Positions 1-16,326 of a DNA stretch of 64,000 nt are shown piece by piece. This stretch comes from an uncultured delta proteobacterium (lineage in GTDB: Bacteria; Desulfobacterota; RBG-13-43-22). Below the pieces are notes generated by a model. It was not told the origin of the DNA, made no database searches, and saw only the letters and a program-made list of their open reading frames with translations. Location: positions 384,001 through 448,000 of the forward strand of contig CAWJJC010000022.1 of the NCBI GenBank assembly GCA_963843145.1, given 5' to 3'. Made by a program: the position numbers and the translations under genes. Positions within the stretch are counted from its first letter, which is position 1. The number at the start of each line of letters is the position of its first letter.

Positions 1-378
1 CCCTTAAAGGAAAAATTGGCCCTGACCCTCCGAATTCATACCACAGCGGCCGTGGACTTTGATAAAATGAAACTCTTGGTCCATGATCAACGATCGTTGA
101 GCCCCGGCCATCGGAAAGAGCTAAATCAGAAACAAAGCGAGTATGTGAGCCGGCTTATTGCTATCCTGCAACAGCTCCAGGACCAGGGGGAGATGCTCGA
201 TATCGACCTGACGGTCTGCGCCTATGCTTTTTTCGGCATGGTCAGTTGGGCCTATCGCTGGTATCGGCCGGACGGGAAAGTGAAATTGGAAGAACTATCC
301 GAGATATTCTATACGATTTTTACCCAGGGGATCTATCGCGAGCGGGGAACTGGAACAAAGAAGGCAAAACGCAGCTAA
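1..378 (+). CDS. TetR/AcrR family transcriptional regulator, C-terminal part (5' end outside window)
   Basis: Frame open from base 1; C-terminal motif 'AFFGMVSWAYRWYRPDG' typical of TetR_C domains of KstR2-like regulators; lies directly upstream of the catabolic operon. Confidence 0.8.
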   Translation, partial: PLKEKLALTLRIHTTAAVDFDKMKLLVHDQRSLSPGHRKELNQKQSEYVSRLIAILQQLQDQGEMLDIDLTVCAYAFFGMVSWAYRWYRPDGKVKLEELSEIFYTIFTQGIYRERGTGTKKAKRS

Positions 379-508
379 AAAGATATTGACAAAAAGGGGC
401 TTTTTAATAGAAGGTGGAGCGGAAGGTTAAAGCAAGCGCTCAAATAAATCCAACACAACGCCCCAATAACCCGTCCTTCGGTTCGGCGGATCTTAATAGA
501 AACCGTTT

Positions 509-1393
509 ATGCCCATAGGCGACCAAGTAGCCCAATTCATTGTTTCCGGCCTAACCACCGGCAGCATCTATGCCCTCATCGCCCTCGGTTTTTGTATTAT
601 CCATAATGCCACCGGGATTGTGAATTTCACCCAGGTGGATTTCATCACCTTGGGCGGATTGATGATGTATACCTTTTTGCTGGGCCTGGGCCTGCCGCTG
701 CCCCTGGCCTTCGTATTAGCGGTCATCACCGTTACGCTGGTGGGGGGGTTGGTGGAGCGGTTGGCCATCCGACCGGCCAAGTCCCGCGCGGTCATCGTCC
801 TGATCTTTATTACCATCGGGGTCTCGATCCTGATGCGCGGGACCTTTAAAGTGATCTGGGGAAAAAACCAGATGGCCGTGCCTCCCTTTAGCGGGGATAC
901 GCCCTTTATCCTTTTACGGGCCGCGGTGCTGCCTCAAAGCATCTGGATTTTCTTCATCACTTTGGCCGTCGTCATCATCCTCCATCTCTTTTTTAATCAC
1001 AGCTTGACGGGCAAGGCCATGCGGGCCACCTCCTTCAACCCCCGGGCTGCCGCCCTGATGGGGGTCAATGTTAACCGCATGATCTTCCTTTCCTTTGCCC
1101 TGAGCGGGGCCTTGGGGGCCATTGCCGGTATTATTATCGTCCCGATTACCACCTTGTCTTACAATATCGGCGTCATGCTGGGGTTAAAGGGGTTTGCCGC
1201 CGCGGTCTTGGGAGGGTATGGAAATATTATTGGGGCCGTCATCGGCGGCTTGTTATTGGGGGTTTTGGAATCGTTGGGGGCCGGTCTGATCTCTTCCAGC
1301 TATAAAGATGTGCTCGCCTTTATCATCCTGCTCCTGGTTCTGTTTTTGAAGCCGAGCGGCCTGTTAGGCTTCGGCGAAAAGGAACGGGTCTAA
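509..1393 (+). CDS. livH: Branched-chain amino acid/aromatic acid ABC transporter permease (LivH family)
   Basis: 'SGLTTGSIYALIALGF', 'GKAMRATS', 'KGFAAAVLGGYGN', 'KPSGLLG' motifs; hydrophobic. Confidence 0.92.
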   Translation: MPIGDQVAQFIVSGLTTGSIYALIALGFCIIHNATGIVNFTQVDFITLGGLMMYTFLLGLGLPLPLAFVLAVITVTLVGGLVERLAIRPAKSRAVIVLIFITIGVSILMRGTFKVIWGKNQMAVPPFSGDTPFILLRAAVLPQSIWIFFITLAVVIILHLFFNHSLTGKAMRATSFNPRAAALMGVNVNRMIFLSFALSGALGAIAGIIIVPITTLSYNIGVMLGLKGFAAAVLGGYGNIIGAVIGGLLLGVLESLGAGLISSSYKDVLAFIILLLVLFLKPSGLLGFGEKERV

Positions 1394-1397
1394 CCTG

Positions 1398-2375
1398 ATG
1401 ATTTGGGGATGGATTAAGAATAAATCCTATTTGGGCTTGCTGCTCCTGGGCCTGATTCTCCTCCTCTTCCCCCTGGTCATCAACAATCCTTATTATTTGA
1501 ACGTAGTCAATATCATCGGCCTGAACACCCTGATCGTGGTGGGGCTCAATCTGCTGATCGGGTATGCCGGCCAGATCTCTCTGGGCCACGCCGCTTTTTA
1601 TGGCCTGGGGGCCTATCTTTCCGGCATTTTGACGGTCAGTTATCATTTTTCTCCCTGGATCGCCATGGGTCTGGCATTGATGGTCACCGGGTTGCTGGCC
1701 TTGCTGATCGGTATTCCTACCCTGAAATTGCACGGCCATTATTTGGTTATGGCCACCCTCGGATTTAATATAATCGTCAATATTGTTATGATCCAGTGGG
1801 ATCAGGTCACCGGCGGTCCTTCCGGGTTTCCCGGGATACCCAACCTGAAAATCGGGAGCCTGGTCTTCGATTCCGACCTAAAGATGTACTATTTGATCTG
1901 GTTCTTTACTTTTGTCGGGATTGCCTTGGCCTTAAACCTGGTTCATTCCCGGGTCGGCCGAGGCCTCCGGGCCTTACACGGCAGCGAAGTGGCCGCCGGT
2001 TCTCTGGGCGTAAATACCGCGGTCTACAAAGTGAAGGTCTTTGTTTTGAGCGCCCTCTATGCCTCCCTGGCCGGGAGCCTCTATGCCCACTATTTGACTT
2101 TTATCAGCCCGAAGACCTTCGATATCTTCTTTTCCATCGAATTGGTGACCATGGTCATCGTCGGTGGTATGGGCAGTATTTGGGGAACCCTTTTCGGGAC
2201 TACCTTCATCACCCCTCTACCGGCGATGCTGCACTTTTTTGATGAATATAAGGATATCTTTTATGGATTAATCCTGGTCTTTATTCTAATCTTTTTACCC
2301 GAAGGGGTGGTGGTCGCCCTTCGAAACCGGTTCCGCAGCGGAAAGCGGAACTTGAGCGGAGCGGATCTCCGGTGA
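1398..2375 (+). CDS. livM: ABC transporter permease (LivM family)
   Basis: 'GLNLLIGYAGQISLGHAAFYGLGAY', 'TGGPSG', 'SRVGRGLRAL', 'VGGMGS'. Confidence 0.92.
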   Translation: MIWGWIKNKSYLGLLLLGLILLLFPLVINNPYYLNVVNIIGLNTLIVVGLNLLIGYAGQISLGHAAFYGLGAYLSGILTVSYHFSPWIAMGLALMVTGLLALLIGIPTLKLHGHYLVMATLGFNIIVNIVMIQWDQVTGGPSGFPGIPNLKIGSLVFDSDLKMYYLIWFFTFVGIALALNLVHSRVGRGLRALHGSEVAAGSLGVNTAVYKVKVFVLSALYASLAGSLYAHYLTFISPKTFDIFFSIELVTMVIVGGMGSIWGTLFGTTFITPLPAMLHFFDEYKDIFYGLILVFILIFLPEGVVVALRNRFRSGKRNLSGADLR

Positions 2376-3139
2376 CGGATCTTATCCTGCAGGTTCAGGA
2401 GGTCTCCATCAGTTTTGGGGGATTGATGGCTCTGGGGGAAGTGAGTTTTGACCTGCCCCGGGGACGGATCACCGCCCTGATCGGACCCAACGGCGCCGGC
2501 AAAACAACCGCGATCAATGTCATTTCGGGAATTTATCGGCCGCAGAAAGGGAGGGTTCTTTTTAACGGGCGTTCCGTCACCGGGCAGCGGCCTTATCGGC
2601 TGGCCCGTCTGGGGCTGACCCGGACCTTTCAGAATATACAGATTTTTCAAAACATGACCGTTCTGGAAAACGTGATGGTGGGTCTGCACGGGCGGACACA
2701 CAAGGAGTTCCTCTCCTCCCTCTTTTTTCTCCCGGGTGTCCGTCAGGAGGAGCGGGAGATCGAACGGAAGGCCTGGGAGATTTTGGATCTTTTTAACCTC
2801 CGCAACCAGGGGCCCTGGTCGGCGGCCAGCCTGTCCTACGGGGATCAAAAGCGAATTGAAATGGCCCGGGCCTTGGCTTCCCAGCCCGATCTGATTCTGC
2901 TGGACGAACCGGTGGCCGGCCTGAATATGACCGAGACCCTGGAAGTGGCCAACCTGATTCGCCGGATCTGCGCTCAAGGGATTTCGGTGCTGTTAGTCGA
3001 ACACGACATGAACCTGGTCATGGGGATATCGGATCAGATCGTGGTTCTCAATTTTGGACAAAAGATTGCCGCCGGGCCTCCGGAGGCGATTCAGAAGGAT
3101 CCCCAAGTCCTGGCGGCTTACCTGGGAACCGAGGTCTGA
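2372..3139 (+). CDS. livG: ABC transporter ATP-binding protein (LivG family)
   Basis: Walker A GPNGAGKT, 'RTFQN', LSYG signature, LLDEP, C-terminal 'AYLG'. Confidence 0.93.
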   Translation: MTDLILQVQEVSISFGGLMALGEVSFDLPRGRITALIGPNGAGKTTAINVISGIYRPQKGRVLFNGRSVTGQRPYRLARLGLTRTFQNIQIFQNMTVLENVMVGLHGRTHKEFLSSLFFLPGVRQEEREIERKAWEILDLFNLRNQGPWSAASLSYGDQKRIEMARALASQPDLILLDEPVAGLNMTETLEVANLIRRICAQGISVLLVEHDMNLVMGISDQIVVLNFGQKIAAGPPEAIQKDPQVLAAYLGTEV

Positions 3140-3861
3140 TGTTAGCGGTAGAAAACCTGGAAGCCTATTACGGCGGCAACCAGGCTTTAAAAGGGGTCTC
3201 CCTGGAAGTTAAACCGGGGGAAATTGTTTCCTTGATCGGGGCCAACGGGGCCGGCAAGACGACCTTGCTCAATTGCCTCTCCAGCGTCCATCGCCGGCGG
3301 AAAGGTAAAATTGTTTTTATGGGGCAGGATGTCAGCGGGACGGATTCCCAGCAACGGGTCCGTCTGGGGATCGTTCAGGTTCCGGAAAGCCGACAGCTTT
3401 TTGGCCCCCTGACGGTCAAAGAAAACCTGGAAATGGGGGCCTTTGGCCGTTCCTGGCAGGAGAGGAAAAAGGCGCTGATCCAAGAAATAGAGCGGATTTA
3501 TGCCCTTTTCCCCATTCTTAAGGAGCGCCGAAAACAGCGGGCGGGTACCCTCTCCGGAGGAGAGCAGCAGATGCTGGCCATCGGTCGAGGATTAATGGCC
3601 AACCCCAAACTGCTCCTGCTGGATGAGCCTTCCCTGGGGTTGGCCCCCATGATCGTTCAGGAAATCTTTCGCATCATCAAGACGCTCCAGGACGAGGGCC
3701 GGACCATTCTGCTGGTCGAGCAGAATGCCCGCGGAGCGCTACAAATCTCACAGCGGGCCTATGTCCTGGAGACCGGAGAGATCACCTCCAGCGGTCGGTC
3801 GAAAGACCTGTTGCAGGATGGGAAGGTCCGCCGGGCCTTTCTAGGACAGGACATAACTTGA
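3139..3861 (+). CDS. livF: ABC transporter ATP-binding protein (LivF family)
   Basis: GANGAGKT, LSGGEQQM, LLDEPSLGLAP, VEQN. Confidence 0.93.
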   Translation: MLAVENLEAYYGGNQALKGVSLEVKPGEIVSLIGANGAGKTTLLNCLSSVHRRRKGKIVFMGQDVSGTDSQQRVRLGIVQVPESRQLFGPLTVKENLEMGAFGRSWQERKKALIQEIERIYALFPILKERRKQRAGTLSGGEQQMLAIGRGLMANPKLLLLDEPSLGLAPMIVQEIFRIIKTLQDEGRTILLVEQNARGALQISQRAYVLETGEITSSGRSKDLLQDGKVRRAFLGQDIT

Positions 3862-3903
3862 TCGCTTTAATCCGAACTATTCGTTTTCCCGAAGGGAGTT
3901 ACC

Positions 3904-5532
3904 ATGGGTGTAGCCAAATATCAGAAAGATAAAAAAGATGGGATCCAGGAAGTTACCCTGCAGTCCGGTATTAAGGTCAAACCGGTATATACCCCGAAGG
4001 ATTTAGAGGCGGCCGGTTTCCAGTATGAAAGGGATCTGGCCGATCCAGGGACCTACCCGTTCACTCGAGGTATCCATCCCCTGGGCTACCGTAGTCGGGC
4101 CTGGACTACTCGACAGTACACCGGCTTTGGGACTCCGGCCGAGACCAACGAGCGCTTTAAGCTGATGATCGGCCACGGGCAGACCGGGCTGAACGTGGCC
4201 TTCGATCTTCCCTCCCAGATGGGTCTGGATTCCGACGATCCCCTGGCCGAAGGCGAGGTGGGCCGGGTGGGCATGGCCGTGGATTCCCTGCGGGACTTTG
4301 AAATTGCTTTTAAGGACATTCAATTGGACAAGATCGGCGTGGGACTGACCATCAACGCCGTGGCTGACATCATGCTGGCCATGTTCCAGGCCATGGCCGA
4401 AAAATCCGGCTACACCAAGGACCAGATCAGCGCCACCCCCCAGAACGATATCCTCAAGGAGATGATCGGCCGCGGAGCCTGGATTTTCCCCATCGAACCG
4501 GCCGTAGCCCTGATCGGGGATACCATCGAGTATTCCATGAAGGAGCTGCCCAAATGCAATCCGGTCAGCGTCTGCGGCTACCACATCCGGGAATCCGGGG
4601 CCACGCCGGCCCAGGAGATCGCTTATGCCATCCTGATCGCCAACGCCTATATCGACGAGGTCGTCCGCCGGGGCTACACGGCCGACCAGTTCGTGGGTCG
4701 TTTTTCCTTCAATCTGAACATCTTCGGCAACCTCTGGGAACAGGTGGCCAAGTTTCGGGCCGCCCGGAAACTCTGGGCCAAGAATTTGAAGGAGAAATAC
4801 GACGTCAAAAAGGATAAGGACCTGTACCTCCGGGGTCTCTTCGGCGGCGGCGGCTACGGGCTGACCAAGGCCCAGCCGGAAAACAACATCATCCGCGGGG
4901 CCTACTATGCTCTGGCGGCCGCCTTGGGCGGGGCCCAGACCACGGCCCTCTGCTCCTTCGATGAGGCCTACACCATTCCGACTGAACGGGCGGCCCTGCT
5001 TTCCCTGCGGACCTTGGAGATCCTTATGGAAGAGGTGGGGCTCCGCGACACGGTCGATCCCCTGGCCGGCTCCTATTTCATCGAGACCCTGACCAAGGAG
5101 ATGGAAAACAGGATTTTGGCCGAAATGCAGGAAATTGAACAAATCGGCGGCGTGATCCGGGCCGTAGCCCAGGGCTACATTCAACAAAAGGTTTCCCGGC
5201 AGGCCTATGAATTCGAGAAGTCCGTCCAGGAAGGGGAATTGATCAAGGTGGGGGTGAACAAATACGTAGTCGGGGAGGAGGAGGACGTGGCCCTGCACGA
5301 CTACCGGGAGGAAACAGCGGTGGAGAAGATTAAAGACCTGCAGGCCCTGCGCCGGGAGCGGTCCGCCGCCGAAGTTTCCCGATCTTTGAAAGCCCTGGAA
5401 CGGACCGTAGGGGAAAAGAAAAATGTCATGCCCTTTCTGGTGGACTGCTGCCGGGCTTACTGTACGGTGGGGGAGATGACCCGGGTGTTCCGGGAGGCCT
5501 ATGGAACCTTTGAGGAGCCCAGTATTTTTTAA
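3904..5532 (+). CDS. Adenosylcobalamin-dependent acyl-CoA mutase, large (substrate-binding) subunit, methylmalonyl-CoA mutase family; no B12-binding domain
   Basis: 'PGTYPFTRG', 'WTTRQYTGF', 'AFDLP', 'QNDILKE', 'GYHIRE', 'FDEA', 'DPLAGSYFIE'; no DxHxxG domain in 542 aa. Confidence 0.93.
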   Translation: MGVAKYQKDKKDGIQEVTLQSGIKVKPVYTPKDLEAAGFQYERDLADPGTYPFTRGIHPLGYRSRAWTTRQYTGFGTPAETNERFKLMIGHGQTGLNVAFDLPSQMGLDSDDPLAEGEVGRVGMAVDSLRDFEIAFKDIQLDKIGVGLTINAVADIMLAMFQAMAEKSGYTKDQISATPQNDILKEMIGRGAWIFPIEPAVALIGDTIEYSMKELPKCNPVSVCGYHIRESGATPAQEIAYAILIANAYIDEVVRRGYTADQFVGRFSFNLNIFGNLWEQVAKFRAARKLWAKNLKEKYDVKKDKDLYLRGLFGGGGYGLTKAQPENNIIRGAYYALAAALGGAQTTALCSFDEAYTIPTERAALLSLRTLEILMEEVGLRDTVDPLAGSYFIETLTKEMENRILAEMQEIEQIGGVIRAVAQGYIQQKVSRQAYEFEKSVQEGELIKVGVNKYVVGEEEDVALHDYREETAVEKIKDLQALRRERSAAEVSRSLKALERTVGEKKNVMPFLVDCCRAYCTVGEMTRVFREAYGTFEEPSIF

Positions 5533-5541
5533 GGAGGAAAA

Positions 5542-7641
5542 ATGGCAGAAAAGAATTACCGGTTGGGCTGTGATATCGGCGGCACTTTTACCGACTTTGT
5601 CCTGCTTGATGATCACACCGGCGAGATAAAGACCGGCAAGTGCCTGACGACCCCTCGGGACCCCTCGGATGCCGTGGAAGAGGGGATACGGGTGCTGGAA
5701 GCCACCACGCCGGACTTTGTGACCAAGCTGGATGAGCTGATTCATGGAACGACCCTGGTCATCAATGCCATTATCGAGCGCAAAGGGTCTAAAACCGGAC
5801 TGATCACCACCAAGGGCTTCCGAGACGTCCTGGAAATCGGCCGGGAGATGCGCTATGCCCCCTACGACCTGTTCGCCGAATTCCCCCAGCCACTGATCCC
5901 CAGAAGATATCGGCTGGAGGTGGACGAGAGGGTCCGAAGCGATGGGAGCGTTCTGAAGGTTCTGGACCCGGAAGAGGCCCGACAGGTGGTCCGCGCCCTG
6001 CTCGGGTTGGGTGTGGAATCGATTGCGGTCTGCCTGCTCAATTCCTTCGAAAATCCGGCCCATGAGCTGCTGCTCCAGGAGATTATCGAACAGGAAGCCC
6101 CGGGCCTTTCCGTTTCCATTTCCTACCATGTTTTGCCCCAGATCAAGGAGTACGAGCGCACCAGCACCACGGTGACCAATGCCTATGTCAAGCCCCTGAC
6201 CGGACGGTATCTGTCCAAGCTGGCCGGCCGGCTGGAGGCCATCGGATTTCGAGGCAAGCTTTTTATTATGCTTTCAAGCGGCGGCGTCACCTCTCTGGAA
6301 ACGGCGGCCGAGTTTCCAGTGCGGATTATCGAGTCCGGGCCGACCGCGGCGGTTATCGCCGGCCAATACTACGGTAAACACTTCCATATTTCGGAAATGT
6401 TCTGCTTTGACATGGGAGGAACGACGGCCAAGTCCTGCCTGATCCAGAAAGGGGTGGCCGGTGTGGTCCCGACGTTTGAAGTCGGGCGCGTCCAACGGTT
6501 CATGAAAGGGAGCGGCCTCACCATTCAGGTCCCGGTCGTGGACCTGATGGAGATCGGCGCCGGGGGCGGTAGTATCGCCAAGGTAAGCAAGCTGGGCACC
6601 TTGCAGGTCGGGCCGGAAAGTTCCGGAGCGTCACCCGGGCCAATCTGCTATGGTCTGGGAGGCACCGATCCCTGCGTGACCGATGCCGATCTCCTGTTGG
6701 GTTACCTGGATCCGGACTACTTTCTCGGCGGGGCGATGAAACTCGACTACGAGGGGGCCCGGCGCGGCGTCGAGAAAAAGATCGCTCAACCGCTCGGGGT
6801 CTCTTTTATTCAGGCCATCTGGGGGATCCACGATCTCATCAATGAAACCATGGCGGCGGCCGCCAAGACCCACATCGCCGAAAAAGGCGGAAACCCCAAG
6901 CTGGTGACTATCGTGGCCTTCGGGGGTGCGGGACCGGTTCACGCCTATGGGCTGGCCAAGAAATTGGGGGCCCCCCGTTTGCTGGTCCCGCCCAATGCCG
7001 GGGTAGGGTCGGCCATGGGTTTTTTCACCGCCCCCCGGGCCTTTGATCTTCTCCGGAGTCACAAAGTTTCCCTGAATGAGGCGGCCCTGGATGAAATCGA
7101 GCGCATCTTCCAGGGGTTGGAGGGGGATTCGGCCAAGATACTGAAGAAGGAAGCTGGAGAGGAAACGCTCCAATTCGAGAGGGCGCTCGACATGCGCTTC
7201 GTGGGACAGGGTTCGGAGATCACCGTTCTCTTGCCTACTGGAGATTTCACCCGCCTCGAGAAAACTGAAATTCGTCGCCTCTTTGATGAGGCCTATGAAA
7301 AACTCTATGGCCGGACCTATCCGGACTCCGAAGTGGAATTCATTAATTTCAAAGTGCGGGCCAGCCTGCCCGAACGGCTTCTGCAACTGCCTAAATTGGT
7401 CGTCAAGGGGAAACAGTCCCTGGAGGCGGCCGTCAGGGGGCGGCGGCAGGCCTACTCTCCCCTGGCTCGTGAGTTTATCCCCTATACGGTCTACGATCGC
7501 TACCCATTGTTTCCCGGGGCCCGGTTTCCCGGTCCGGCTATTATCGAGGAGAAGGAGTCGACTCTCATTGTGGGGGAGGATGCCCGGGTGGCCGTAGATG
7601 ACTTCGGATTCCTGTGGATAGATTTGACCAAGCCTGATTGA
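5542..7641 (+). CDS. Hydantoinase A / 5-oxoprolinase family ATP-binding subunit (HyuA-like)
   Basis: 'DIGGTFTD', 'HGTT', 'EYERTSTT', 'SGP', 'DMGGTT', 'IGAGGGS', 'VTDADLLLG', 'FGGAG'. Confidence 0.93.
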   Translation: MAEKNYRLGCDIGGTFTDFVLLDDHTGEIKTGKCLTTPRDPSDAVEEGIRVLEATTPDFVTKLDELIHGTTLVINAIIERKGSKTGLITTKGFRDVLEIGREMRYAPYDLFAEFPQPLIPRRYRLEVDERVRSDGSVLKVLDPEEARQVVRALLGLGVESIAVCLLNSFENPAHELLLQEIIEQEAPGLSVSISYHVLPQIKEYERTSTTVTNAYVKPLTGRYLSKLAGRLEAIGFRGKLFIMLSSGGVTSLETAAEFPVRIIESGPTAAVIAGQYYGKHFHISEMFCFDMGGTTAKSCLIQKGVAGVVPTFEVGRVQRFMKGSGLTIQVPVVDLMEIGAGGGSIAKVSKLGTLQVGPESSGASPGPICYGLGGTDPCVTDADLLLGYLDPDYFLGGAMKLDYEGARRGVEKKIAQPLGVSFIQAIWGIHDLINETMAAAAKTHIAEKGGNPKLVTIVAFGGAGPVHAYGLAKKLGAPRLLVPPNAGVGSAMGFFTAPRAFDLLRSHKVSLNEAALDEIERIFQGLEGDSAKILKKEAGEETLQFERALDMRFVGQGSEITVLLPTGDFTRLEKTEIRRLFDEAYEKLYGRTYPDSEVEFINFKVRASLPERLLQLPKLVVKGKQSLEAAVRGRRQAYSPLAREFIPYTVYDRYPLFPGARFPGPAIIEEKESTLIVGEDARVAVDDFGFLWIDLTKPD

Positions 7642-7650
7642 AATTTTGGC

Positions 7651-7826
7651 TAAACCCGAAACTCGAAATACGAAATCCGAAACAAATTCAAATGACCAAA
7701 ATTCAAAATAAAAGACACTTGCTCTTGAACCGAAGCGGTCCATCAAGGGAGGTGAAGTTGTTTCAGTCATTTGAATTTTGAACATTGTTTATTGTTTCGA
7801 ATTTCGTGCTTCGGATTTCGAATTTA
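7651..7826. repeat. Palindromic intergenic element built of cgaaa(t/c) heptamer-like units (MITE-like), copy 1
   Basis: Left arm 'cgaaatacgaaatccgaaacaaattcaaatgacc' pairs imperfectly with right arm 'gtcatttgaatt...ttcggatttcgaattt'; a second copy lies at 34000-34202. Confidence 0.8.
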
Positions 7827-7898: not shown

Positions 7899-9611
7899 AT
7901 GGGTCACGCGTTTGATCCAATCACGTTGGAAATTTTATGGCGCAGGCTGATTGCCATCGTGGACGAGGCGGACGGCAGTGTGGCCCGAACCGCCTTCTCC
8001 AGTTTGCTCCGGGATGCCCACGATTACACCTGTATGTTTACCGACCGCAGGGGTCGGGAACTGGCCCAGGGGACCTTTGCCACACCCGGCCAGTCGGGGG
8101 CCATGGCCCTGGGGGTAAAGGCCCTCATCAATAAGTATCCGGCCGACACCTACCAGCCCGGGGACGTATTTATTACCAATGATCCTTGGGCTCTGGCGGG
8201 GCACCTGAATGACATCTGTGTCATGAGTCCGATTTTCTACCAGAAACAATTGGTCGCCTTCACGGCCTGTGTTTTTCATCACTCCGATATCGGAGGCCGC
8301 GTGGCCTCCGACAATCATGACGTCTTCGAAGAAGGCCTATTCATCCCTTTCGTGAGGCTCTATGACCGAGGGGTCCTCAACCAATCGGTCCTGGATTTGA
8401 TCCGCTGGAATGTTCGGACGCCTGATGAGGTTACCGGAGATATCCGGTCGCAAATTTCAGCAAACTTCGTCTGTGCCGAAAAGGTAGGCCAGATGCTCAA
8501 GGAGAGTGACCTGGAGAACCTGGACGACCTGGCCGACCAGATTATCCGTCTGACGGAAAAAAGCATGCGGGAAGAGATCGAAAAGATCCCGGACGGTATT
8601 TACCGGGCCCAAGGCCTCATCGAACAGACCAGGGGAAAAGAGGACATCGTGATCCAAGCCCAGGTCGAGATCCAGGGGAGCGACATCCTGGTGGACCTCG
8701 CCGGCTCTTCCGGGCAGGTCAACTGGGGCGGCAACGTGGTTTTCAATTTTACCTTTGCCTATGTCTTCATGGCCATCAAAAGTATGTTTGCTCCGGATAT
8801 CCCTAATAACGAAGGCTGTGCTCGGCCGATACGTTTGACCGCCCCGGAGGGGAGCGTGGTAAACTGCAAATTTCCGGCCGCCGTGGCGGCTCGGATGGGG
8901 GTGGGACATTTCATGACCGAAGTCATCTATCGGGCTCTTTCCGAAGTGTTACCTCAAAAAGTCATTGCCGGATCCGGCGGGACCCCGGCGGCGATGAACG
9001 TCTTTTACGGGAGAAGGAAAGACGGGAAGCCCTGGCATTCCGTGATCATCCGGGGAGGCGGCATGGGAGCCGGAGCGGCCAACGACGGCAATTACGTTTA
9101 CATCTTCCCGGCCAACGGCGCGAATACCCCGGTAGAAATATTTGAAAGCGACACCCCGCTTATCGTGGAAAAGCGGGAGCTCCTCATCGATTCGGGAGGA
9201 CCCGGAAGAATGAAGGGCGGCCTCGGGAAAAGAGAGGTTTTTCGGATACCCGCTGACCAGTACGCCCCGATCCCGCCGGTCAACCTGGGAATCCAGGCGG
9301 GAAGGTTCAGCTATCCGGCGGAAGGGCTCTTTGACGGCCGGCCCGGTGCCCGGGCCCAATTCCTCATCAACGGGGAACCGGGGAATTCCTATGGATTAAC
9401 CCAGTTGAAGCCCGGGGACCGGGTGATCATCGATGCTCCTGGCGGAGGCGGCTACGGTTCTCCCTTTGAACGGGAGCCCGAGTTGGTGGCGGAGGACGTG
9501 CGGGAAGGGTATGTCAGTCCGGAAAGCGCCCGAAAGGAATATGGGGTTGAAATAGACCCCGAAACCCAGGAAGCCAATGGGACTGAAACAACAAAACTTC
9601 GGGGCCGGTGA
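7899..9611 (+). CDS. Hydantoinase B / oxoprolinase family metal-binding subunit (HyuB-like)
   Basis: 'DPITLEILW', 'NDPW..GHLND', 'HHSDIGG', 'NTPVEIFE', 'DSGGPG..KGGLG', 'PGGGGYG'. Confidence 0.93.
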   Translation: MGHAFDPITLEILWRRLIAIVDEADGSVARTAFSSLLRDAHDYTCMFTDRRGRELAQGTFATPGQSGAMALGVKALINKYPADTYQPGDVFITNDPWALAGHLNDICVMSPIFYQKQLVAFTACVFHHSDIGGRVASDNHDVFEEGLFIPFVRLYDRGVLNQSVLDLIRWNVRTPDEVTGDIRSQISANFVCAEKVGQMLKESDLENLDDLADQIIRLTEKSMREEIEKIPDGIYRAQGLIEQTRGKEDIVIQAQVEIQGSDILVDLAGSSGQVNWGGNVVFNFTFAYVFMAIKSMFAPDIPNNEGCARPIRLTAPEGSVVNCKFPAAVAARMGVGHFMTEVIYRALSEVLPQKVIAGSGGTPAAMNVFYGRRKDGKPWHSVIIRGGGMGAGAANDGNYVYIFPANGANTPVEIFESDTPLIVEKRELLIDSGGPGRMKGGLGKREVFRIPADQYAPIPPVNLGIQAGRFSYPAEGLFDGRPGARAQFLINGEPGNSYGLTQLKPGDRVIIDAPGGGGYGSPFEREPELVAEDVREGYVSPESARKEYGVEIDPETQEANGTETTKLRGR

Positions 9612-9631
9612 GGACAAGCTACGGGAAAACC

Positions 9632-9730
9632 CGTCATTGCGACCCCGGACTTGATCCGGGGGAAGCCATCCCATCCCGGTAACTGGTTGATTCTTGGGGA
9701 TTGCTTCGTCGCTTCACTCCTCGCAATGAC
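9632..9730. repeat. REP-like palindrome (GTCATTGCGA...TCGCAATGAC family)
   Basis: Terminal inverted repeats gtcattgcga / tcgcaatgac; 9699-9730 is the exact reverse complement of the 32 bp at 13929-13960. Confidence 0.8.
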
Positions 9731-9772
9731 AGAACAAAAATAATCTGAGGAGAATCTATTAAGAGAATACCT

Positions 9773-11062
9773 ATGCCAAACACCTTCATGCCTTCTTTTC
9801 ATTCCCTTGAGGAATTAGCCGCCCATCAACTTAAGGGCCTGCAATGGACCGTCAACCATGCCTATGGCGGATCGGCTTTCTACCGAAATAAATTCGAAGA
9901 AGCCGGAATCCAGCCTGAAGATATCAAATCGTTGGACGATATCCGACGGCTGCCTTTTGTCACCGCCCAGGACCTGCGGGACGGGTATCCCTTTCCGCTG
10001 CTTTCGGTCCCCTTGGAACAAGTGGTCCGCATCCACGCCTCCTCCGGCACAACCGGGAAGCGGAAAATCCTGGCCTATACCCAGAAAGACATCGACGATT
10101 GGGCCCATTTTTTTGCGCGCTGTTACGAGATGGCCGGATTGTCCCGCGAGGACCGGGTCCAGATCGCCGTGGGCTACGGGGTCTGGACCGCCGGCGTCGG
10201 TTTTCAATTGGGCTGCGAAAGGTTCGGAGCCCTGGCCATCCCGATAGGACCCGGCAATATCGATCTCCAATGCCAGTTTCTGGAAGACCTGCAGTCCACG
10301 GTCCTTTGCTGTACCGCTTCCATGGCCCTGCTGATGGCCGAGGAGGTGGAAAAGCGGGGGCTACGAGGAAAAATCGCTTTAAAAAAAATCATCTTTGGTT
10401 CGGAACGAAGCAGTGCGGCCCAACGAAAGCGCATCCAAGAACTGCTGGGGCTGGAAGAACTGTTTGATATCCCGGGATTGACGGAACTCTACGGTCCGGG
10501 AACCGGGTTGGACTGCGTTCGTCACGAGGGTATTCATTATTGGGCCGATTATTATCTGCTTGAACTGCTGGACCCCTTGTCCCTGGAACCGGTGGAACCC
10601 GGCCAGACCGGAGAAATGGTGGTCACCACCTTGTGGAAGGAGGCGGCGCCCTTAATCCGTTACCGAACCCGGGACCTGACCCGGTTGATCGCCGGCCCCT
10701 GCTCCTGCGGGAATATCCTGCCTCGGCACGACCGGATCTTGGGGCGTTCCGACGACATGATTATATTTCGGGGCGTCAATCTCTATCCGGCCCAATTGGA
10801 TCATATCCTTTCGGAAATCCCCGAGGTGGGCAGTGAATATCAGATCCATTTAAACCGGGGGACGGACGGGAAAGATACCCTGCTGGTCCGCCTCGAACGG
10901 GCCGGCGGAGAAGACGCGGCTCGGGATAGCGATCTCGCCAAAAAGATTGAAGCGCGCATCAAACAGCAGGTCTTGGTCAGCGCCCGGATTGAGCTGGTCG
11001 ACTACGGGATGCTGCCCCGATCGGAACGGAAGTCGAAGAGGGTTTTCGACAGCAGGATATAA
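9773..11062 (+). CDS. Phenylacetate-CoA ligase family (PaaK-like aryl-acetate CoA ligase)
   Basis: 'RIHASSGTTGK', 'GLTELYGPG', 'PLIRYRTRD', 'GRSDDMIIFRGVN', C-terminal 'KSKRVFD'. Confidence 0.92.
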   Translation: MPNTFMPSFHSLEELAAHQLKGLQWTVNHAYGGSAFYRNKFEEAGIQPEDIKSLDDIRRLPFVTAQDLRDGYPFPLLSVPLEQVVRIHASSGTTGKRKILAYTQKDIDDWAHFFARCYEMAGLSREDRVQIAVGYGVWTAGVGFQLGCERFGALAIPIGPGNIDLQCQFLEDLQSTVLCCTASMALLMAEEVEKRGLRGKIALKKIIFGSERSSAAQRKRIQELLGLEELFDIPGLTELYGPGTGLDCVRHEGIHYWADYYLLELLDPLSLEPVEPGQTGEMVVTTLWKEAAPLIRYRTRDLTRLIAGPCSCGNILPRHDRILGRSDDMIIFRGVNLYPAQLDHILSEIPEVGSEYQIHLNRGTDGKDTLLVRLERAGGEDAARDSDLAKKIEARIKQQVLVSARIELVDYGMLPRSERKSKRVFDSRI

Positions 11063-11145
11063 GCCGGCGTGAGGAGGTGAAGGGGGCTAACTTGCAAGAA
11101 GGAGAGGGTAATTTCCAATAAATTTCAAAAAAGGAGGAAGAACAA

Positions 11146-12309
11146 ATGAAAAAACTGGGAATCTTTGCTTTGCTGGGTTTGTTGGTGCTGTGCTGGTCTT
11201 CGGCCTTTGCCGCGGAGCCGATTAAGATCGGCGCCTTTTATTCCTTATCCGGCCCGGCGGCCGCCATCGGGACTCCGACGAAACTGGTTACGCAGATGGT
11301 GGTGGAAAAAATCAACAAAGAGGGAGGAATCAACGGCCGGCCTATCGAGCTGGTTCTGGGGGATACCGAATCCGACCCCACGAAAGCGGTGATGGTTATC
11401 AAAAAGTTCATCAACGTGGACAAGGTAGCCGCCATCATCGGCCCGGACCGTACCGACCTGGGCATGGCCGTGAAAAAACTGGTCGAGGAGGCCGAGATTC
11501 CCACCTTCATGACCGTGGGCGGAGATCCGGTGATCATGGGCGGCGGTCCGCTGGGGACGTTCAAATGGGTCTTCAAGTCTCCCCAGCGCAGTTCGACCGC
11601 AGTTGAAAAAGTTTACCAGTATCTGCAGAAGAAGAACCTGAAGAAGATCGCTTTGATCACCGCCTCGGACGGCTTCGGCAAGGACGGCAAGCGTTGGTTG
11701 GAAAAACTGGCCTCCCAACATGGACTGACCATTATTGCCGATGAGTCCTTTAATCCCAAGGATACGGATATGACCTCCCAGTTGACTAAGATCAAGGCCG
11801 CCAATCCCGAGGCGATCATCTGCTGGACTATTGGCCCGGCCGGAGCGATCGTGGCCAAGAACGTGAAGCAACTTAATATCAATACGCCTCTGTTCCAGTG
11901 CCATGGTCTGCCGGATCCTAAATATATTGAGCTGGCCGGATCGGCCGCCGAAGGGAACATGATGCCCTCCACCAAGCTCATGGCCTGGGAGCAGCTCTCC
12001 GACAAGGATCCCCAGAAGAAGGTCATCAAGGAATTTGTCCACCTGTATAATGATGTCTATCACCACGATAAACAGTTTGCCATCAATGCCCACTCGGGCT
12101 ATGCCTGGGATGCCATCTATATTGTGGCCAATGCCATGAAGAAGGTGGGCACCGAAAAAAATAAGTTACGGGACGCCATCGAACATACCAAGAATTATGT
12201 CGGCGTCAGCGGAATCTACAATTTGACTCCCGAAGACCACAATGGTTTGGGCACCGATTCCATGATCATGGTGCGCATTGAGAACGGGAAGTGGAAGCTG
12301 GTCGAATAA
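11146..12309 (+). CDS. ABC transporter substrate-binding protein (LivJ/Leu-binding family)
   Basis: Signal peptide; 'PIKIG..SLSGPAA', 'INKEGGINGRPIEL', 'DMTSQLTKIK'. Confidence 0.92.
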   Translation: MKKLGIFALLGLLVLCWSSAFAAEPIKIGAFYSLSGPAAAIGTPTKLVTQMVVEKINKEGGINGRPIELVLGDTESDPTKAVMVIKKFINVDKVAAIIGPDRTDLGMAVKKLVEEAEIPTFMTVGGDPVIMGGGPLGTFKWVFKSPQRSSTAVEKVYQYLQKKNLKKIALITASDGFGKDGKRWLEKLASQHGLTIIADESFNPKDTDMTSQLTKIKAANPEAIICWTIGPAGAIVAKNVKQLNINTPLFQCHGLPDPKYIELAGSAAEGNMMPSTKLMAWEQLSDKDPQKKVIKEFVHLYNDVYHHDKQFAINAHSGYAWDAIYIVANAMKKVGTEKNKLRDAIEHTKNYVGVSGIYNLTPEDHNGLGTDSMIMVRIENGKWKLVE

Positions 12310-12312
12310 AAT

Positions 12313-12408
12313 CAGGTACAAGGTGCAGGGCGCAAGGCTCAAGGTAAAACATAAAAGAAGTTATCCTATAAGCCTTCTGCCTTGCGCTCGTGCCTTGCAC
12401 CCTGAGCC
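12313..12408. repeat. Heptamer-repeat palindrome (aggtgca/gggcgca/aggctca ... tgcgc/tgcacc/tgagcc)
   Basis: Tandem 7-mers 'aggtaca aggtgca gggcgca aggctca' mirrored downstream by 'ccttgcgctcgtgccttgcaccctgagcc'. Confidence 0.65.
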
Positions 12409-12444
12409 AACTCCTGTTGGGAAAAATTGCCAGAAAGGATTTTC

Positions 12445-13320
12445 ATGCCTTCTTTCGAATACTTGAGACCAAAGTCCATTAATGAAGCCATTTCACTTTT
12501 GGAGTCCCATGGCGAAAAGGGTCGCTATATCGCCGGGGGTACCGATGTGATCGTTAAAATCAAAGAAAGGAAGATGACGCCGGAGTACTTGATTTCCCTG
12601 CGCCATATCCCCGACCTGGCCTATATCCACCGGGACCCGGAAGGCATCTTGCGTCTCGGCGCCCTGACCACCCACCGGATGCTGGAGCAATCGTCCTTGA
12701 TCCGTCGCTATTATCCCTGTATCTCCGATGCCGTCGAGCATATCGGGTCGGTGCAAATTCGCAATGTGGCCACCATCGGGGGCAACATCTGCAATGCCGT
12801 CCCCTCCGCCGATGGGGTGATCCCTTTGCTCATCCTGGGTGCCCAGGTAACCCTGGCGGGACCCAAAGGGAAACGTTCCCTGCCGCTGAAAAGTTTTTTT
12901 CTGGGGCCGGGCCTGACCTTGATGGAGCCGGGGGAGATATTGACCGAATTTTTTATTCCACCGCTGCCGGCGAACAGCAGCGGCGGCTATGTCAAGCATA
13001 CCCGGCGGGAGGCCATGGAGCTGCCCATCGTGGGCGTAGGCTGTTTCCTGGCCCTGAGTCCGGATCTGAAAACTTGCGCCAAGGCCCGGTTCGGACTGGG
13101 CGTGGCCGCTCCCACTCCTATCCGCGCTTATTTGGCCGAAGAATTTTTGGAGGGGCAGGAAATCAGCGAAGCCACCCTGACCGAAGCCGGCTTGATCGCC
13201 GCCAAGGAAACCAAAGTCCGCGACAGTATCCGCGGACAGGCCTGGTATCGCCGGGAAATGGTGGAGACCCTGGTCCGGCGAATGGGTTTAAAAGTGCTGG
13301 AAAGAATTAAGAATAAATAA
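12445..13320 (+). CDS. Xanthine dehydrogenase family Mo-hydroxylase, FAD-binding subunit (CoxM-like)
   Basis: 'IAGGTD', 'LGALTT', 'IGSVQIRNVATIGGN', 'PSAD'; ATG at 12445 preferred over TTG at 12427. Confidence 0.92.
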   Translation: MPSFEYLRPKSINEAISLLESHGEKGRYIAGGTDVIVKIKERKMTPEYLISLRHIPDLAYIHRDPEGILRLGALTTHRMLEQSSLIRRYYPCISDAVEHIGSVQIRNVATIGGNICNAVPSADGVIPLLILGAQVTLAGPKGKRSLPLKSFFLGPGLTLMEPGEILTEFFIPPLPANSSGGYVKHTRREAMELPIVGVGCFLALSPDLKTCAKARFGLGVAAPTPIRAYLAEEFLEGQEISEATLTEAGLIAAKETKVRDSIRGQAWYRREMVETLVRRMGLKVLERIKNK

Positions 13321-13356
13321 TCTTAGCATTCCTATTCAGGAGGTTCTAATCTTATT

Positions 13357-13855
13357 ATGCAAAAAATGGTTTTTAAATTAAACGGCCATCCGCTGGAGAC
13401 CCTGGTGGAACCCCACTGGACCCTATTGGAATTATTACGGGACCATCTGGAACTTACCGGGACCAAGGAGGGCTGCGGGCAAGGGGAATGCGGGGCCTGT
13501 ACGGTATTGCTGGACGGTCTGGCGGTCAACGCCTGCCTTTTCCCGGTGCTGGAGGCTGAAGGACGGGAGGTGACCACCATCGAAGGACTGGCCGGCTGCG
13601 GATGGATCCCTCCATCCCCTCCAGGAGGCCTTTATTAACTATGGGGCCGTTCAGTGCGGTTTCTGCACCCCGGGAATGATCTTGTCGGCCAAGGCGCTTC
13701 TGGACGAAAATCCCCATCCGGCGGAAGACGATATCCGGACAGCCCTGGCAGGCAATTTCTGCCGTTGCACCGGCTACGCCCAGATCATCCAGGCCGTTCA
13801 GTCGTTAAGCGCCTATGAAGAAAAGGACGTGGAGTTCATAACCCGGGAGACCTAG
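13357..13855 (+). CDS. Mo-hydroxylase 2x[2Fe-2S] subunit (CoxS-like), interrupted by a one-base frameshift near 13594
   Basis: Frame 1 gives 'TKEGCGQGECGACTV..NAC..TTIEGL'; the shifted frame continues 'DGSLHPLQEAF..QCGFCTPGM..GNFCRCTGY' to TAG at 13853-13855. Confidence 0.9.
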
Positions 13856-13859
13856 AACC

Positions 13860-13962
13860 ACGGATACTGGATAAAAGCGAAAGACGATGCTGGATACTGG
13901 ATGCTGAAAAGCAGGCCATTATCCCGCGGTCATTGCGAGGAGTGAAGCGACGAAGCAATCTC
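13860..13962. repeat. gat(a/g)ctg heptamer run followed by a REP-like half element
   Basis: 'gatactg', 'gatgctg gatactg gatgctg' units, then gtcattgcgaggagtgaagcgacgaagcaatc, shared in inverted form with 9699-9730. Confidence 0.7.
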
Positions 13963-14033
13963 CAAGGAACCGAGAGTTGCTATTTTCGAAGGTTGTCATC
14001 AAATTCTGAGAAACGATAAGAGACGAGGGACTT

Positions 14034-16304
14034 ATGGAAGAACTACAGGTCGTAGGTCAACGGATTCCCAAGCGGGATGCGTTAGATAAGGTTACCGGCC
14101 GGGCCCGGTATATCCAGGACGTGAAGCTGCCGGGGATGCTCTATGGAAGGATTCTTTACAGCAAATATCCGCATGCCAAAATAGAAAAAATCGATACCTC
14201 CCGTGCGGAAAAACTTCCCGGGGTCCGGGCAGTGTTGACCGGCGACCAACTTCCACCGCTCAAATTCGGGTTTTATAAAGACAACACGCCGCTCAAAACC
14301 GGCAAGGTGCGGTCCTATCGCGACGAAGTGGCCGCCGTGGCGGCCATTGATCCGGAAATCGCCCGGGAGGCCCTGAACTTAATCGAAGTGACCTATAGCC
14401 CGCTGCCGGCCCTCTTCGACCCGGAGGAGGCCCTGAAGGAAGGGGCCCCGCTGATCCATGAAGCGCATAAGTCCAATCTGCTCAAACTGCCCTGGAAACT
14501 CATCTGCGGCGATGTGGAGGAGTCGCGTAAAAATTCGGACTTTGTGGCCCAGGACCGGTTCAAAGTCACCTGGGTGACCCATTGCTGCCTGGGCACCAGC
14601 GGCTGCATCGCCGACTTCGATTTGCGCAACAACCTGACCATGTACAGCAATACCCAGATCCCCTCGCTGGCCCAGAAAGATTACCTGGAATTCTTGAAGG
14701 CCCTGGGGTTGAAGGAATCCCGGGTCCGGATCATCCAGACCTTCATCGGCGGGGCCTTCGGCAGCAAGCTGGACACCTATGCCTATGAGTACATCGCCAT
14801 CCTGCTGGCCCGGGCCGTCCGTAAACCGATCAAGATCATCTTTGACCGCCAGGAGGAATTCAAGGCCACCTCCACCCGCCAGCCGGCGATCATCGATATC
14901 GCCCAGGGCTGCACCCGGGAAGGCCAGCTCACCTTCCGCGACCTGACCATGATTCTCGATAACGGGGCCTACACTTCCTGGGGAGCGACGACCCCTTCGG
15001 TCATGATGATGCCCATCTCCTCCCTCTACCGAGTCCCGAATATCCGCTTTATCGCCCAGTGCGTCTATACCAACAACACCTATAGTCAAGCCATGCGGGG
15101 CTACGGCAATCCCCAGGCCACGTTCGCCATCGAAAGCCAGTTGGACACCCTGGCCGAAAAGGCCGGGATCGATCCCTATGAATTTCGGCGTCTGAACAGC
15201 AACACCCCGGGTGAAATCAGCCCTCAGGGCCTTAAAATAACCAGTTGCGGCCTCCCGGCCTGTCTGGAATCCGTGGCTCGGGAACTGAACTGGACGGAAA
15301 AAAGAGGGCGGCAGAAAAACCGTGGGGTGGGGATGGCTTCCCTGATCCATGTGGGCGGCGGGGCCCGGGTGTACAAATCCGACGGCTGCGGGACCATCAT
15401 CAAGATGGACGACTACGGCAAGGTGGATGTTTTTACCGGGGCCAGCGAAATGGGACAGGGATCGGAAACGGTGATCGCCCAGATCGTCGCCGAAGAATTA
15501 GGGCTGACGGTGGAGGACATCAACGTGATCAACCAGGATACCGACGTCTGCCCCTGGGACGTGGGCGCTCACGCCAGCCGGACCACCTTTGTGGCCGGCA
15601 ACTCCGCCCTGTTGGCCGCCCGCCAGGTGAAGGACCGGATTCTGGAAATCGCCTCCCGGGAACTCGAGGCCCATCAGGCCGATTTGATTTTGAGCGGTCG
15701 AAAGGTCTCCGTCAAGGGCAGCCCCGACCGGTCCCTCACGCTGGAGAAGGTCTTGCGCAAGGCCCACTACAGCCCCGGGGGCACGATGATCATGGGGGAA
15801 TATTTTTACGATCCAGCCAATGAAAACCTCGACCGGGAGTTCAAGGGGAATATGTCCATGGCCTACGCCTTCGGGGTCCACGGGGTGGAAGTCGAAGTGG
15901 ATCCGGAAACCGGCAAGGTCAAGATCCTGAACTACGTGGCCGCCCACGATGTGGGCCGGGCCATCAATCCTTTGCTCCTCGAGGGGCAGGTCTACGGCGG
16001 GATCGCCATGGGGGTGGGCTATGCCCTGAGCGAACAGCTCATTCTGCATAAAGGCGAGGTCATGAACGCCAATTTCCGGGATTACAAAATGCTCACCGCC
16101 AAGGACCGGATTCCGATCAAGGCCCTGGTGGTCGAAACCGACGACCCGGCCGGCCCCTTCGGCGCCAAAGGCATCGGTGAGCCGGGCTGCGTGCCCACCG
16201 CCCCGGCCATCGCCAACGCCATCTACGACGCCATCGGGGTCCGGATCCATGATTTGCCGATCACCCCGGAAAAGATCGTGGCGGCGTTGAAGCAGAAAAA
16301 ATAA
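14034..16304 (+). CDS. Xanthine dehydrogenase family Mo-hydroxylase, molybdopterin-binding large subunit
   Basis: 'DKVTGRARY', 'GGAFGSK', 'AMRGYGNPQ', 'EMGQG', 'HASRTT', 'HDVGRAINP', 'GAKGIGE' with the catalytic Glu. Confidence 0.93.
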   Translation: MEELQVVGQRIPKRDALDKVTGRARYIQDVKLPGMLYGRILYSKYPHAKIEKIDTSRAEKLPGVRAVLTGDQLPPLKFGFYKDNTPLKTGKVRSYRDEVAAVAAIDPEIAREALNLIEVTYSPLPALFDPEEALKEGAPLIHEAHKSNLLKLPWKLICGDVEESRKNSDFVAQDRFKVTWVTHCCLGTSGCIADFDLRNNLTMYSNTQIPSLAQKDYLEFLKALGLKESRVRIIQTFIGGAFGSKLDTYAYEYIAILLARAVRKPIKIIFDRQEEFKATSTRQPAIIDIAQGCTREGQLTFRDLTMILDNGAYTSWGATTPSVMMMPISSLYRVPNIRFIAQCVYTNNTYSQAMRGYGNPQATFAIESQLDTLAEKAGIDPYEFRRLNSNTPGEISPQGLKITSCGLPACLESVARELNWTEKRGRQKNRGVGMASLIHVGGGARVYKSDGCGTIIKMDDYGKVDVFTGASEMGQGSETVIAQIVAEELGLTVEDINVINQDTDVCPWDVGAHASRTTFVAGNSALLAARQVKDRILEIASRELEAHQADLILSGRKVSVKGSPDRSLTLEKVLRKAHYSPGGTMIMGEYFYDPANENLDREFKGNMSMAYAFGVHGVEVEVDPETGKVKILNYVAAHDVGRAINPLLLEGQVYGGIAMGVGYALSEQLILHKGEVMNANFRDYKMLTAKDRIPIKALVVETDDPAGPFGAKGIGEPGCVPTAPAIANAIYDAIGVRIHDLPITPEKIVAALKQKK

Positions 16305-16326
16305 GAAAGAATTCAGATGCAGGGAT

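Follow-up and report, generated by a model that had tools for sequence, protein, structure and literature searches.

The window analysed here is a stretch of 64,000 nucleotides (nt) from an uncultured member of the Desulfobacterota (G000:C22:384001-448000, where G000 denotes the window's own genome, 97.9% complete). Positions 1-16304 hold a block of genes, all on the plus strand, as delimited from a listing of open reading frames (ORFs) and scans against Pfam and NCBIfam. The block encodes a TetR-family regulator, the permeases and ATPases of a Liv-type importer (LivHMGF), the large subunit of a B12-dependent acyl-coenzyme A (CoA) mutase, both subunits of a hydantoinase/oxoprolinase-type enzyme (hydA and hydB), a PaaK-family ligase, a periplasmic binding protein, and the three subunits of a molybdenum (Mo) hydroxylase of the XDH family (Table 1). 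A previous reading of the letters alone (the sequence-only reading) had described a co-directional block with these gene types, and all of them were recovered in that place and orientation. Based on orthology, phylogeny and conservation of the gene set, the block probably belongs, in rearranged form, to the iaa gene clusters for anaerobic indoleacetate catabolism, of the type predicted in strict anaerobes, with indoleacetate itself as the likely substrate.

Only the C-terminal 125 amino acids (aa) of the regulator fall within the window; the entire gene (G000:C22:383773-384378) starts 228 bases upstream of it, encodes 201 aa with TetR_N and TetR_C_24 domains, and probably controls the block. 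The upstream border is formed by a divergent gene of the DHDPS family and the downstream border by two small antitoxin-like genes on the minus strand (16327-17070; BrnA_antitoxin and Unstab_antitox families). Scans of 50 further ORFs in the window returned nothing pathway-like, with the possible exception of a thiolase-like gene. No block protein, the LivHMGF proteins against the LivHMGF equivalogs included, reached the curated cut-off of a named NCBIfam equivalog; the family names alone therefore do not give function.

Table 1. Features of the block and related genes; positions are those of the window unless a contig of G000 is named.
Feature	Position	Strand	Basis
TetR-family regulator, C-terminal 125 aa	1-378	+	TetR_C_24, 88.5 bits
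livH, permease	509-1393	+	BPD_transp_2
livM, permease	1398-2375	+	BPD_transp_2
livG, ATPase	2372-3139	+	ABC_tran
livF, ATPase	3139-3861	+	ABC_tran
B12-dependent acyl-CoA mutase large subunit (MM_CoA_mutase)	3904-5532	+	PF01642, 587.7 bits
Hydantoinase/oxoprolinase A subunit (hydA)	5542-7641	+	Hydant_A_N, Hydantoinase_A, Hydant_A_C
AT-rich insert with 57-nt inverted arms, hydA-hydB spacer	7651-7826		Inverted repeat I1
Hydantoinase/oxoprolinase B subunit (hydB)	7899-9611	+	PF02538, 488.2 bits
38-nt palindromic extragenic repeat, hydB-ligase spacer	9693-9730	-	97% inverted match to 13929-13966
PaaK-family aryl-acetate-CoA ligase	9773-11062	+	AMP-binding and AMP-binding_C_2
Liv/Peripla_BP_6-type periplasmic binding protein	11146-12309	+	PF13458, 190.1 bits
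XDH-family Mo-hydroxylase FAD subunit	12427-13320	+	FAD_binding_5 and CO_deh_flav_C
Mo-hydroxylase 2x[2Fe-2S] small subunit, in two frames (13357-13638 followed by that of 13574-13855)	13357-13855	+	N-terminal half of small-subunit models matched by one piece, C-terminal half by the other
Second 38-nt palindromic repeat, 178-base spacer before the Mo large subunit gene	13929-13966	+	
Mo-cofactor large subunit	14034-16304	+	Ald_Xan_dh_C, MoCoBD_1, MoCoBD_2
Thiolase-like gene	34215-35465	-	Weak Thiolase_N and Thiolase_C matches
GGG-motif dehydrogenase	C11:34722-35858		
GGG-motif dehydrogenase	C2:147923-149059		
GGG-motif dehydrogenase	C21:186388-187524		

Conservation of the gene set in the phylum

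With hydB as the anchor, the block was compared with 401 sampled genomes of the phylum, of which 50, including G000, had a match with at least 63% identity and 16 further genomes had only matches of 42% or less. Loci of about 9 kb to each side of hydB were taken from 31 of the 49 other genomes and from three of the low-identity genomes, hand-picked for spread and contig room (18 omitted). The 31 loci contained hydA (31), the ligase (29), the flavin adenine dinucleotide (FAD) subunit (29) and the 2Fe-2S subunit (27) of the Mo-hydroxylase, its large subunit (23), the mutase (23) and a B12 subunit (22), with the CoA-transferase and an IaaF-like dehydrogenase in eight each, the binding protein in three, livH in two and the TetR gene in one. 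Absence from a locus does not equal absence from the genome, several loci stop at contig ends, and in two of the genomes (G338 and G103) the mutase lies further along the same contig. None of these partner genes occurred at the three control loci (hydB matches of 42% or less). The co-conservation anticipated by the sequence-only reading is borne out by these counts, and the synteny of the core set in many other genomes indicates that the arrangement is more than chance.

The usual order in the relatives is CoA-transferase, electron-transferring flavoprotein (ETF), dehydrogenase and GntR regulator (each of these four variably present), followed by the B12 subunit, mutase, hydA, hydB, ligase, FAD subunit, 2Fe-2S subunit and Mo large subunit, with the ligase gene following hydB and preceding the Mo-enzyme genes in most of the 29 loci that hold it. 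Two of the 31 loci, which belong to one family (f1), have Liv genes in the cluster. Among four relatives scanned with Pfam, ETF alpha and beta genes adjoin the dehydrogenase in two (L095 and L097), MeaB is present in one, and three have a GntR/FCD regulator where the window has TetR. Apart from the 2Fe-2S subunit gene, the block genes are intact and their proteins are 89-99% identical to those of the same genus, except for the ligase, which is 83% identical in G171. At the locus of G338 (C43, L071), the cluster is split between the mutase and hydA by about 6 kb of other genes (12100-18250), among them a 1292-aa ORF.

Enzymes shared with the Aromatoleum pathway

Indoleacetate is a plant hormone and also a product of tryptophan fermentation, and, to our knowledge, its anaerobic consumption has been elucidated only in the denitrifiers Aromatoleum and Azoarcus. 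The passages of PMC8360864 on the iaa operon in Aromatoleum aromaticum assign the role of binding protein to IaaM, of indoleacetate-CoA ligase to IaaB, of phenylsuccinyl-CoA transferase to IaaL, of B12 mutase to IaaGH and of decarboxylating benzylmalonyl-CoA dehydrogenase to IaaF, which belongs to a subclass with GGG where other acyl-CoA dehydrogenases have YEG. The same passages, citing Schuhle et al. 2016, report predicted iaa operons with an ETF paralogue beside iaaF in strict anaerobes (Desulfatiglans anilini, other sulfate reducers and Ferroglobus placidus). The section of PMC8453981 on IaaCE describes it as a hydantoinase-like hydrolase (707 + 564 aa), proposed to open 2-oxoindoleacetate. 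PMC8360864 was the sole relevant find in a search for literature on iaa genes in Syntrophorhabdus, Syntrophus or Desulfatiglans.

The gene-specific part of the iaaF primer, as printed in PMC8360864, matched 29 loci. The match in Aromatoleum buckelii U120 supplied the reference cluster, which stands here for the iaa operon of A. aromaticum / Azoarcus evansii. The order there is a thiolase-like gene, a 512-aa AMP-binding ligase, hydantoinase A (708 aa) and B (574 aa), the dehydrogenase (377 aa), the B12 subunit (139 aa), the mutase (537 aa), the FAD, 2Fe-2S and Mo subunits, a family-III CoA-transferase and the binding protein. IaaF was fixed by the primer and further names are those given in the papers, while the remaining letters were assigned by position and family; IaaI, IaaJ and IaaK follow the sequence-only reading, with which the gene order agrees. 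Apart from the loci in A. buckelii and Halopenitus persicus, the remaining primer matches were acyl-CoA dehydrogenase genes that share the same start by chance and were set aside. Halopenitus persicus (L024 / L033) has a dehydrogenase that starts with the primer sequence and, about 4 kb away, a hydB 34% identical to that of the window and placed in the IaaE clade; of the three block proteins searched there, the mutase found its best match (42%) on another contig and the Mo subunit reached 32%. This may be an archaeal iaa-like locus.

The block mutase and IaaG of A. buckelii are reciprocal best hits (56% identity, 661.6 bits). IaaG matches two other mutases of G000 at 43-44%, each with an adjacent B12 subunit gene of its own, and the next best Aromatoleum match to the block mutase is at 37%. 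In a mutase tree (20 rows; quick IQ-TREE run, LG+G4, midpoint-rooted, long branches present), 16 cluster mutases and IaaG form a clade with a Shimodaira-Hasegawa-like approximate likelihood ratio test (SH-aLRT) support of 100, outside of which fall the two other G000 mutases and one Aromatoleum paralogue. The motifs ...IGRG(A/T)WIFP... and ...RQY(A/T)GF... are common to IaaG and the cluster mutases, and the Aromatoleum and G000 paralogues differ at GRG(A/T)WIFP. The protein shares its fold and family with methylmalonyl-CoA mutase and HcmA; its best matches among solved structures are HcmA (4r3u, 437.6 bits) and then the human methylmalonyl-CoA mutase. It differs from methylmalonyl-CoA mutase in scoring 453.1 bits on NF006944 (cut-off 876) and in having its B12 subunit encoded elsewhere in the genome. 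The cluster mutases retain the Tyr of ...RQY... and an Arg aligned with the human enzyme, where HcmA has Ile and Gln; we take these two positions of methylmalonyl-CoA mutase to bind the substrate carboxylate. The block mutase is accordingly placed as the orthologue of IaaG, with a proposed function as arylsuccinyl-CoA / arylmethylmalonyl-CoA mutase.

Based on Pfam, the B12 domain is missing from the block mutase, and in the window's genus the cluster lacks the B12 subunit gene that a relative from the same family (G231) keeps between livF and the mutase. Outside of the block, on contig C12, G000 has a family-III CoA-transferase gene (CoA_transf_3; G000:C12:88816-90069), homologous to IaaL and followed directly by a B12-binding subunit gene (G000:C12:90073-90483). 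The CoA-transferase contains the best match to IaaL in G000 (C12:88888-90066, 41%; next best 25-29%) and itself matches IaaL best in Aromatoleum (43%; next 32%), making the two reciprocal best hits, while the best G000 match to IaaH lies in the B12 subunit gene (C12:90094-90477, 52%). Each of the two C12 proteins is 63% identical to its in-cluster counterpart in the relative G121. The sequence-only reading had suggested that genes missing from the block be sought elsewhere in the genome; of these, the IaaL and IaaH homologues were found, paired on C12, and the IaaF-clade enzyme was not. IS200-like (Y1_Tnp) transposase genes occur at 47245-47913 in the window and near the C12 pair (L040, 16484-17485).

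The large subunit of the Mo-hydroxylase and IaaK are likewise reciprocal best hits (48-49%), with next best matches of 37% for IaaK in G000 and 35% for the block subunit in Aromatoleum. In a tree of 35 rows (quick IQ-TREE run, LG+G4, midpoint-rooted, long branches present), 15 cluster large subunits and IaaK form a clade (SH-aLRT 100) that excludes 11 paralogues from G000, three from Aromatoleum and five second Mo enzymes of related loci. The 2Fe-2S and FAD subunits are 50-51% and 35% identical to their Aromatoleum counterparts. The enzyme has the three-subunit architecture of 4-hydroxybenzoyl-CoA reductase, and the best solved match of its large subunit is the alpha subunit of 1rm6 (450 bits), but it scores 625.2 bits on TIGR03194 (cut-off 994.55) and has GIGEPG where the reductase has ...EASEG.... 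On these comparisons, the large subunit is the orthologue of IaaK. The phylogenetic check put forward in the sequence-only reading thereby came out in its favour, with the mutase and the Mo large subunit grouping with IaaG and IaaK rather than with a paralogue such as methylmalonyl-CoA mutase or 4-hydroxybenzoyl-CoA reductase.

The same reading had also described a three-subunit Mo-hydroxylase with the catalytic Glu. The subunits are present and the large one ends in ...GAKGIGEPG..., containing the Glu in question, but the small subunit is split between two frames: one extra base near 13596/13597 makes a +1 shift necessary for a full reading. The extra base is common to G338, of the same genus, and is not found in G171. 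A near-identical public contig (13404-13736, 2 of 332 letters different) lacks one base at 13597, although its run is possibly the window's own source and it therefore does not count as independent support; a more distant contig from another metagenome run has one base fewer at 13596, and in runs X2 and X6 no contig spans position 13597. Compared with G338, each half, read in its own frame, has seven synonymous and no non-synonymous substitutions, and the second half has 26 synonymous and one non-synonymous substitution compared with G171. The almost solely synonymous substitutions in both halves indicate a gene under purifying selection, and the frameshift most probably arose in assembly or else is very recent. 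A split gene was rejected, as the second frame has no ATG, GTG or TTG before the first Cys pair, as was a programmed frameshift, for which no slippery site was seen by eye and from which the near-identical contig without the extra base also detracts. An exact look-up of the 93-aa product of the first frame returned no match besides itself.

In the related clusters, the dehydrogenase was examined in five of the eight loci that have it (three, cut by locus ends, were omitted); all five have GGG at the position of YEG and group with Aromatoleum IaaF in one clade (support 97/94). The nearest dehydrogenases to IaaF in G000 are three GGG-motif enzymes (39-42%; Table 1) that make up a weakly supported sister clade (87/72). 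The neighbourhoods of the C2 and C11 genes were scanned: the first adjoins carboxyl-transferase and aldehyde:ferredoxin oxidoreductase genes and the second sits in a separate aromatic-acid-like cluster. This second cluster resembling aromatic-acid catabolism (G000:C11:26001-64000; L107, L108) has a three-subunit Mo enzyme (35-37% identity both to IaaK and to its counterpart in the block), two acyl-CoA dehydrogenases, of which one has the GGG motif, a TetR gene, an AMP-binding ligase, an enoyl-CoA hydratase, two Liv-type importers, an old-yellow-enzyme/pyridine-nucleotide-disulfide reductase fusion, and corrinoid and URO-D-like genes.

Hydantoinase, ligase, uptake and spacer repeats

The hydantoinase belongs to the same family of two-subunit ATP-dependent lactam hydrolases as caprolactamase CapAB, N-methylhydantoinase and 5-oxoprolinase. 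HydA is 35% identical to IaaC. The best NCBIfam matches of hydA and hydB are the alpha and beta subunits of caprolactamase, yet the pair scores only 517.7 and 252.4 bits on the caprolactamase models NF050156/NF050157 (cut-offs of 1000 each) and hydB falls in a separate clade. The best 120 public matches to hydB are 82-93% identical; the few of these that are named carry generic names only and come from metagenome-assembled genomes labelled Syntrophus, Syntrophorhabdaceae, Syntrophorhabdus or Proteobacteria. Among the listed representatives clustered at 50% identity, the nearest full-length relative is at 49% and all other full-length ones are at 44% or below. In a tree of 144 rows (FastTree), 15 orthologues group with the window hydB in a clade with a support of 100, to which P0121 is sister. 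The best relatives with solved structures are N-methylhydantoinase (7hk5) and chain 6yra_B, deposited as 'Hydantoinase'. The sequence-only reading had likened the hydantoinase to IaaCE and the ligase to IaaB. The ligase is of a different AMP-binding subfamily than IaaB. The hydantoinase is a two-subunit enzyme of the same Pfam families as IaaCE but lies in another subfamily of the hydB tree, and appears to be at best its analogue in function, not its orthologue.

The ligase has the AMP-binding and AMP-binding_C_2 domain pair of PaaK and scores 410.9 bits on the PaaK equivalog TIGR02155, below its cut-off of 646.3. It has no match in the 40-kb iaa region of A. buckelii; its best Aromatoleum matches are three PaaK-like genes outside that region (39-41%), and an IaaB-like gene (41%) is present elsewhere in G000. 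The block enzyme is proposed, from sequence, to be an indoleacetate-CoA ligase that would be a functional analogue of IaaB and not its orthologue. The thiolase-like gene, 18 kb from the block, is the best G000 match to the thiolase-like gene that precedes iaaB in A. buckelii (46% over 399 aa; next best 30%) and is possibly linked to the pathway. It adjoins a sigma-54 activator with a GAF domain (35779-37347).

Three of the block's spacers contain repeats. The 38-nt palindromic repeat, with two copies in the block, has about 60 copies in G000, and the summed contig depth at 13893-13986, in the thousands in metagenome runs X5 and X6, indicates that it is very common in many organisms. The arms of the insert in the hydA-hydB spacer are 75% complementary; this spacer has a length of 257 bases in the window and of 62 in G338, and in a more distant relative (L081) hydA and hydB overlap. 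Elsewhere in the window, an Oxidored_FMN (old yellow enzyme) gene on the minus strand (40866-42073) is present as two ORFs (236 + 114 aa) and may be another frameshift or broken gene in the assembly.

Proposed pathway and alternative readings

By homology with the Aromatoleum scheme, as outlined in the pathway sections of PMC8360864 and PMC8453981, on which all of the following steps depend, indoleacetate would be imported by the binding protein and LivHMGF and converted to indoleacetyl-CoA by the PaaK-type ligase. The FAD / 2x[2Fe-2S] / Mo hydroxylase would then place an oxo group next to the ring nitrogen, and the resulting lactam would be opened to (2-aminophenyl)succinyl-CoA by the ATP-dependent hydantoinase-type hydrolase. 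The family-III CoA-transferase encoded on C12 would shift the CoA, after which the B12 mutase, with its large subunit from the block and its small subunit from C12, would form (2-aminobenzyl)malonyl-CoA. An IaaF-type oxidative decarboxylation, for which no IaaF-clade enzyme was found in G000, and beta-oxidation would lead to 2-aminobenzoyl-CoA. The suggestion in the sequence-only reading, a pathway of the iaa kind, perhaps varied, that acts on auxin or a related N-heterocycle, is supported by orthology, clade membership and co-conservation.

The window shares with the Aromatoleum operon a B12 mutase, a three-subunit Mo-hydroxylase, a family-III CoA-transferase, a two-subunit hydantoinase-type hydrolase, a CoA ligase and a Peripla_BP_6 protein. 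It differs in gene order, in having the B12 subunit and CoA-transferase at a second locus, and in the addition of a TetR gene and a full LivHMGF importer. The predicted operons of strict anaerobes were compared by their description in PMC8360864, and the window's cluster is inferred to be of the same type: its relatives have an IaaF-clade dehydrogenase (five examined) with ETF genes alongside (two of the four scanned), whereas the window's own block has neither ETF nor dehydrogenase genes.

Several observations weigh against placing the block among the iaa clusters. The 2Fe-2S gene is frameshifted as assembled, and tblastn with two queries found no IaaF-clade dehydrogenase in G000, despite a completeness of 97.9%. 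The ligase is PaaK-type where IaaB is a 512-aa classical enzyme with AMP-binding and AMP-binding_C domains, and the binding protein shares no more than 28% identity with IaaM. HydB, the sole copy in G000, is only 32-33% identical to IaaE, and nearly all of the 150 listed cluster representatives are closer (34-49%); in the tree, IaaE falls in a distinct 10-row clade (support 99) that meets the hydB clade only at the midpoint root. Since IaaE is on a long branch and the method was a quick one, the evidence of a separate recruitment of the hydantoinase is good but not final.

Some of these points would also fit a cluster that applies the same enzyme logic to another natural substrate, such as a substituted indoleacetate or another N-heterocyclic acetic acid or aryl-acetate, as the two enzymes that first encounter the substrate or its lactam are a ligase not orthologous to IaaB and a hydantoinase not orthologous to IaaCE, the binding protein is distant from IaaM, and the ligase scores under the curated level for a true PaaK. 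This nevertheless seems unlikely, as the mutase, B12 subunit, CoA-transferase, hydroxylase large subunit and the relatives' GGG dehydrogenase are orthologous to those of Aromatoleum; orthology of the hydroxylase and of the enzymes that handle the ring-opened intermediates limits how far the substrate can differ. Similar operons of strict anaerobes have, moreover, already been read as iaa in the operon passages of PMC8360864.

The frameshift, the relocation of the B12 subunit and CoA-transferase genes to C12, the IaaF-clade gene not found in G000 and the three repeat insertions in block spacers could alternatively reflect a cluster that is decaying or inactive in this genome. That is rather improbable given the near-identical contig without the extra base, the nearly exclusively synonymous substitutions of the 2Fe-2S gene compared with G338 and G171, the integrity of all the other genes, and the position of the repeats between genes and not within them. 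The scores below every equivalog cut-off would likewise allow a methylmalonyl-CoA mutase, a 5-oxoprolinase, a xanthine dehydrogenase and a phenylacetate-CoA ligase that are neighbours by chance, which is scarcely credible with a gene order kept across many families of the phylum, two other mutases in G000 that have adjacent B12 subunits of their own, and a mutase and Mo subunit that cluster with IaaG and IaaK to the exclusion of the paralogues tested.

With a catabolic iaa-type cluster as the favoured reading, no new kind of chemistry is revealed, and the block adds one more member to a known pathway type. What extends beyond the window is that a homologous, partly re-tooled iaa-like cluster has been conserved across many of the phylum's families, and that a likely role can be given to a tightly conserved clade of generically named hydantoinases. 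As a tentative and still doubtful extension, the cluster of strict anaerobes may be an evolutionary mosaic, in which a conserved CoA-transferase, B12 mutase, GGG dehydrogenase and Mo-hydroxylase are combined with an independently recruited lactam hydrolase and PaaK-type ligase, and in which, in the window's lineage, a dehydrogenase from outside the IaaF clade performs the decarboxylation. If this were true, uncultured relatives labelled Syntrophus or Syntrophorhabdaceae could be a large unrecognised sink for auxin and related indole acids in anoxic soils and sediments.

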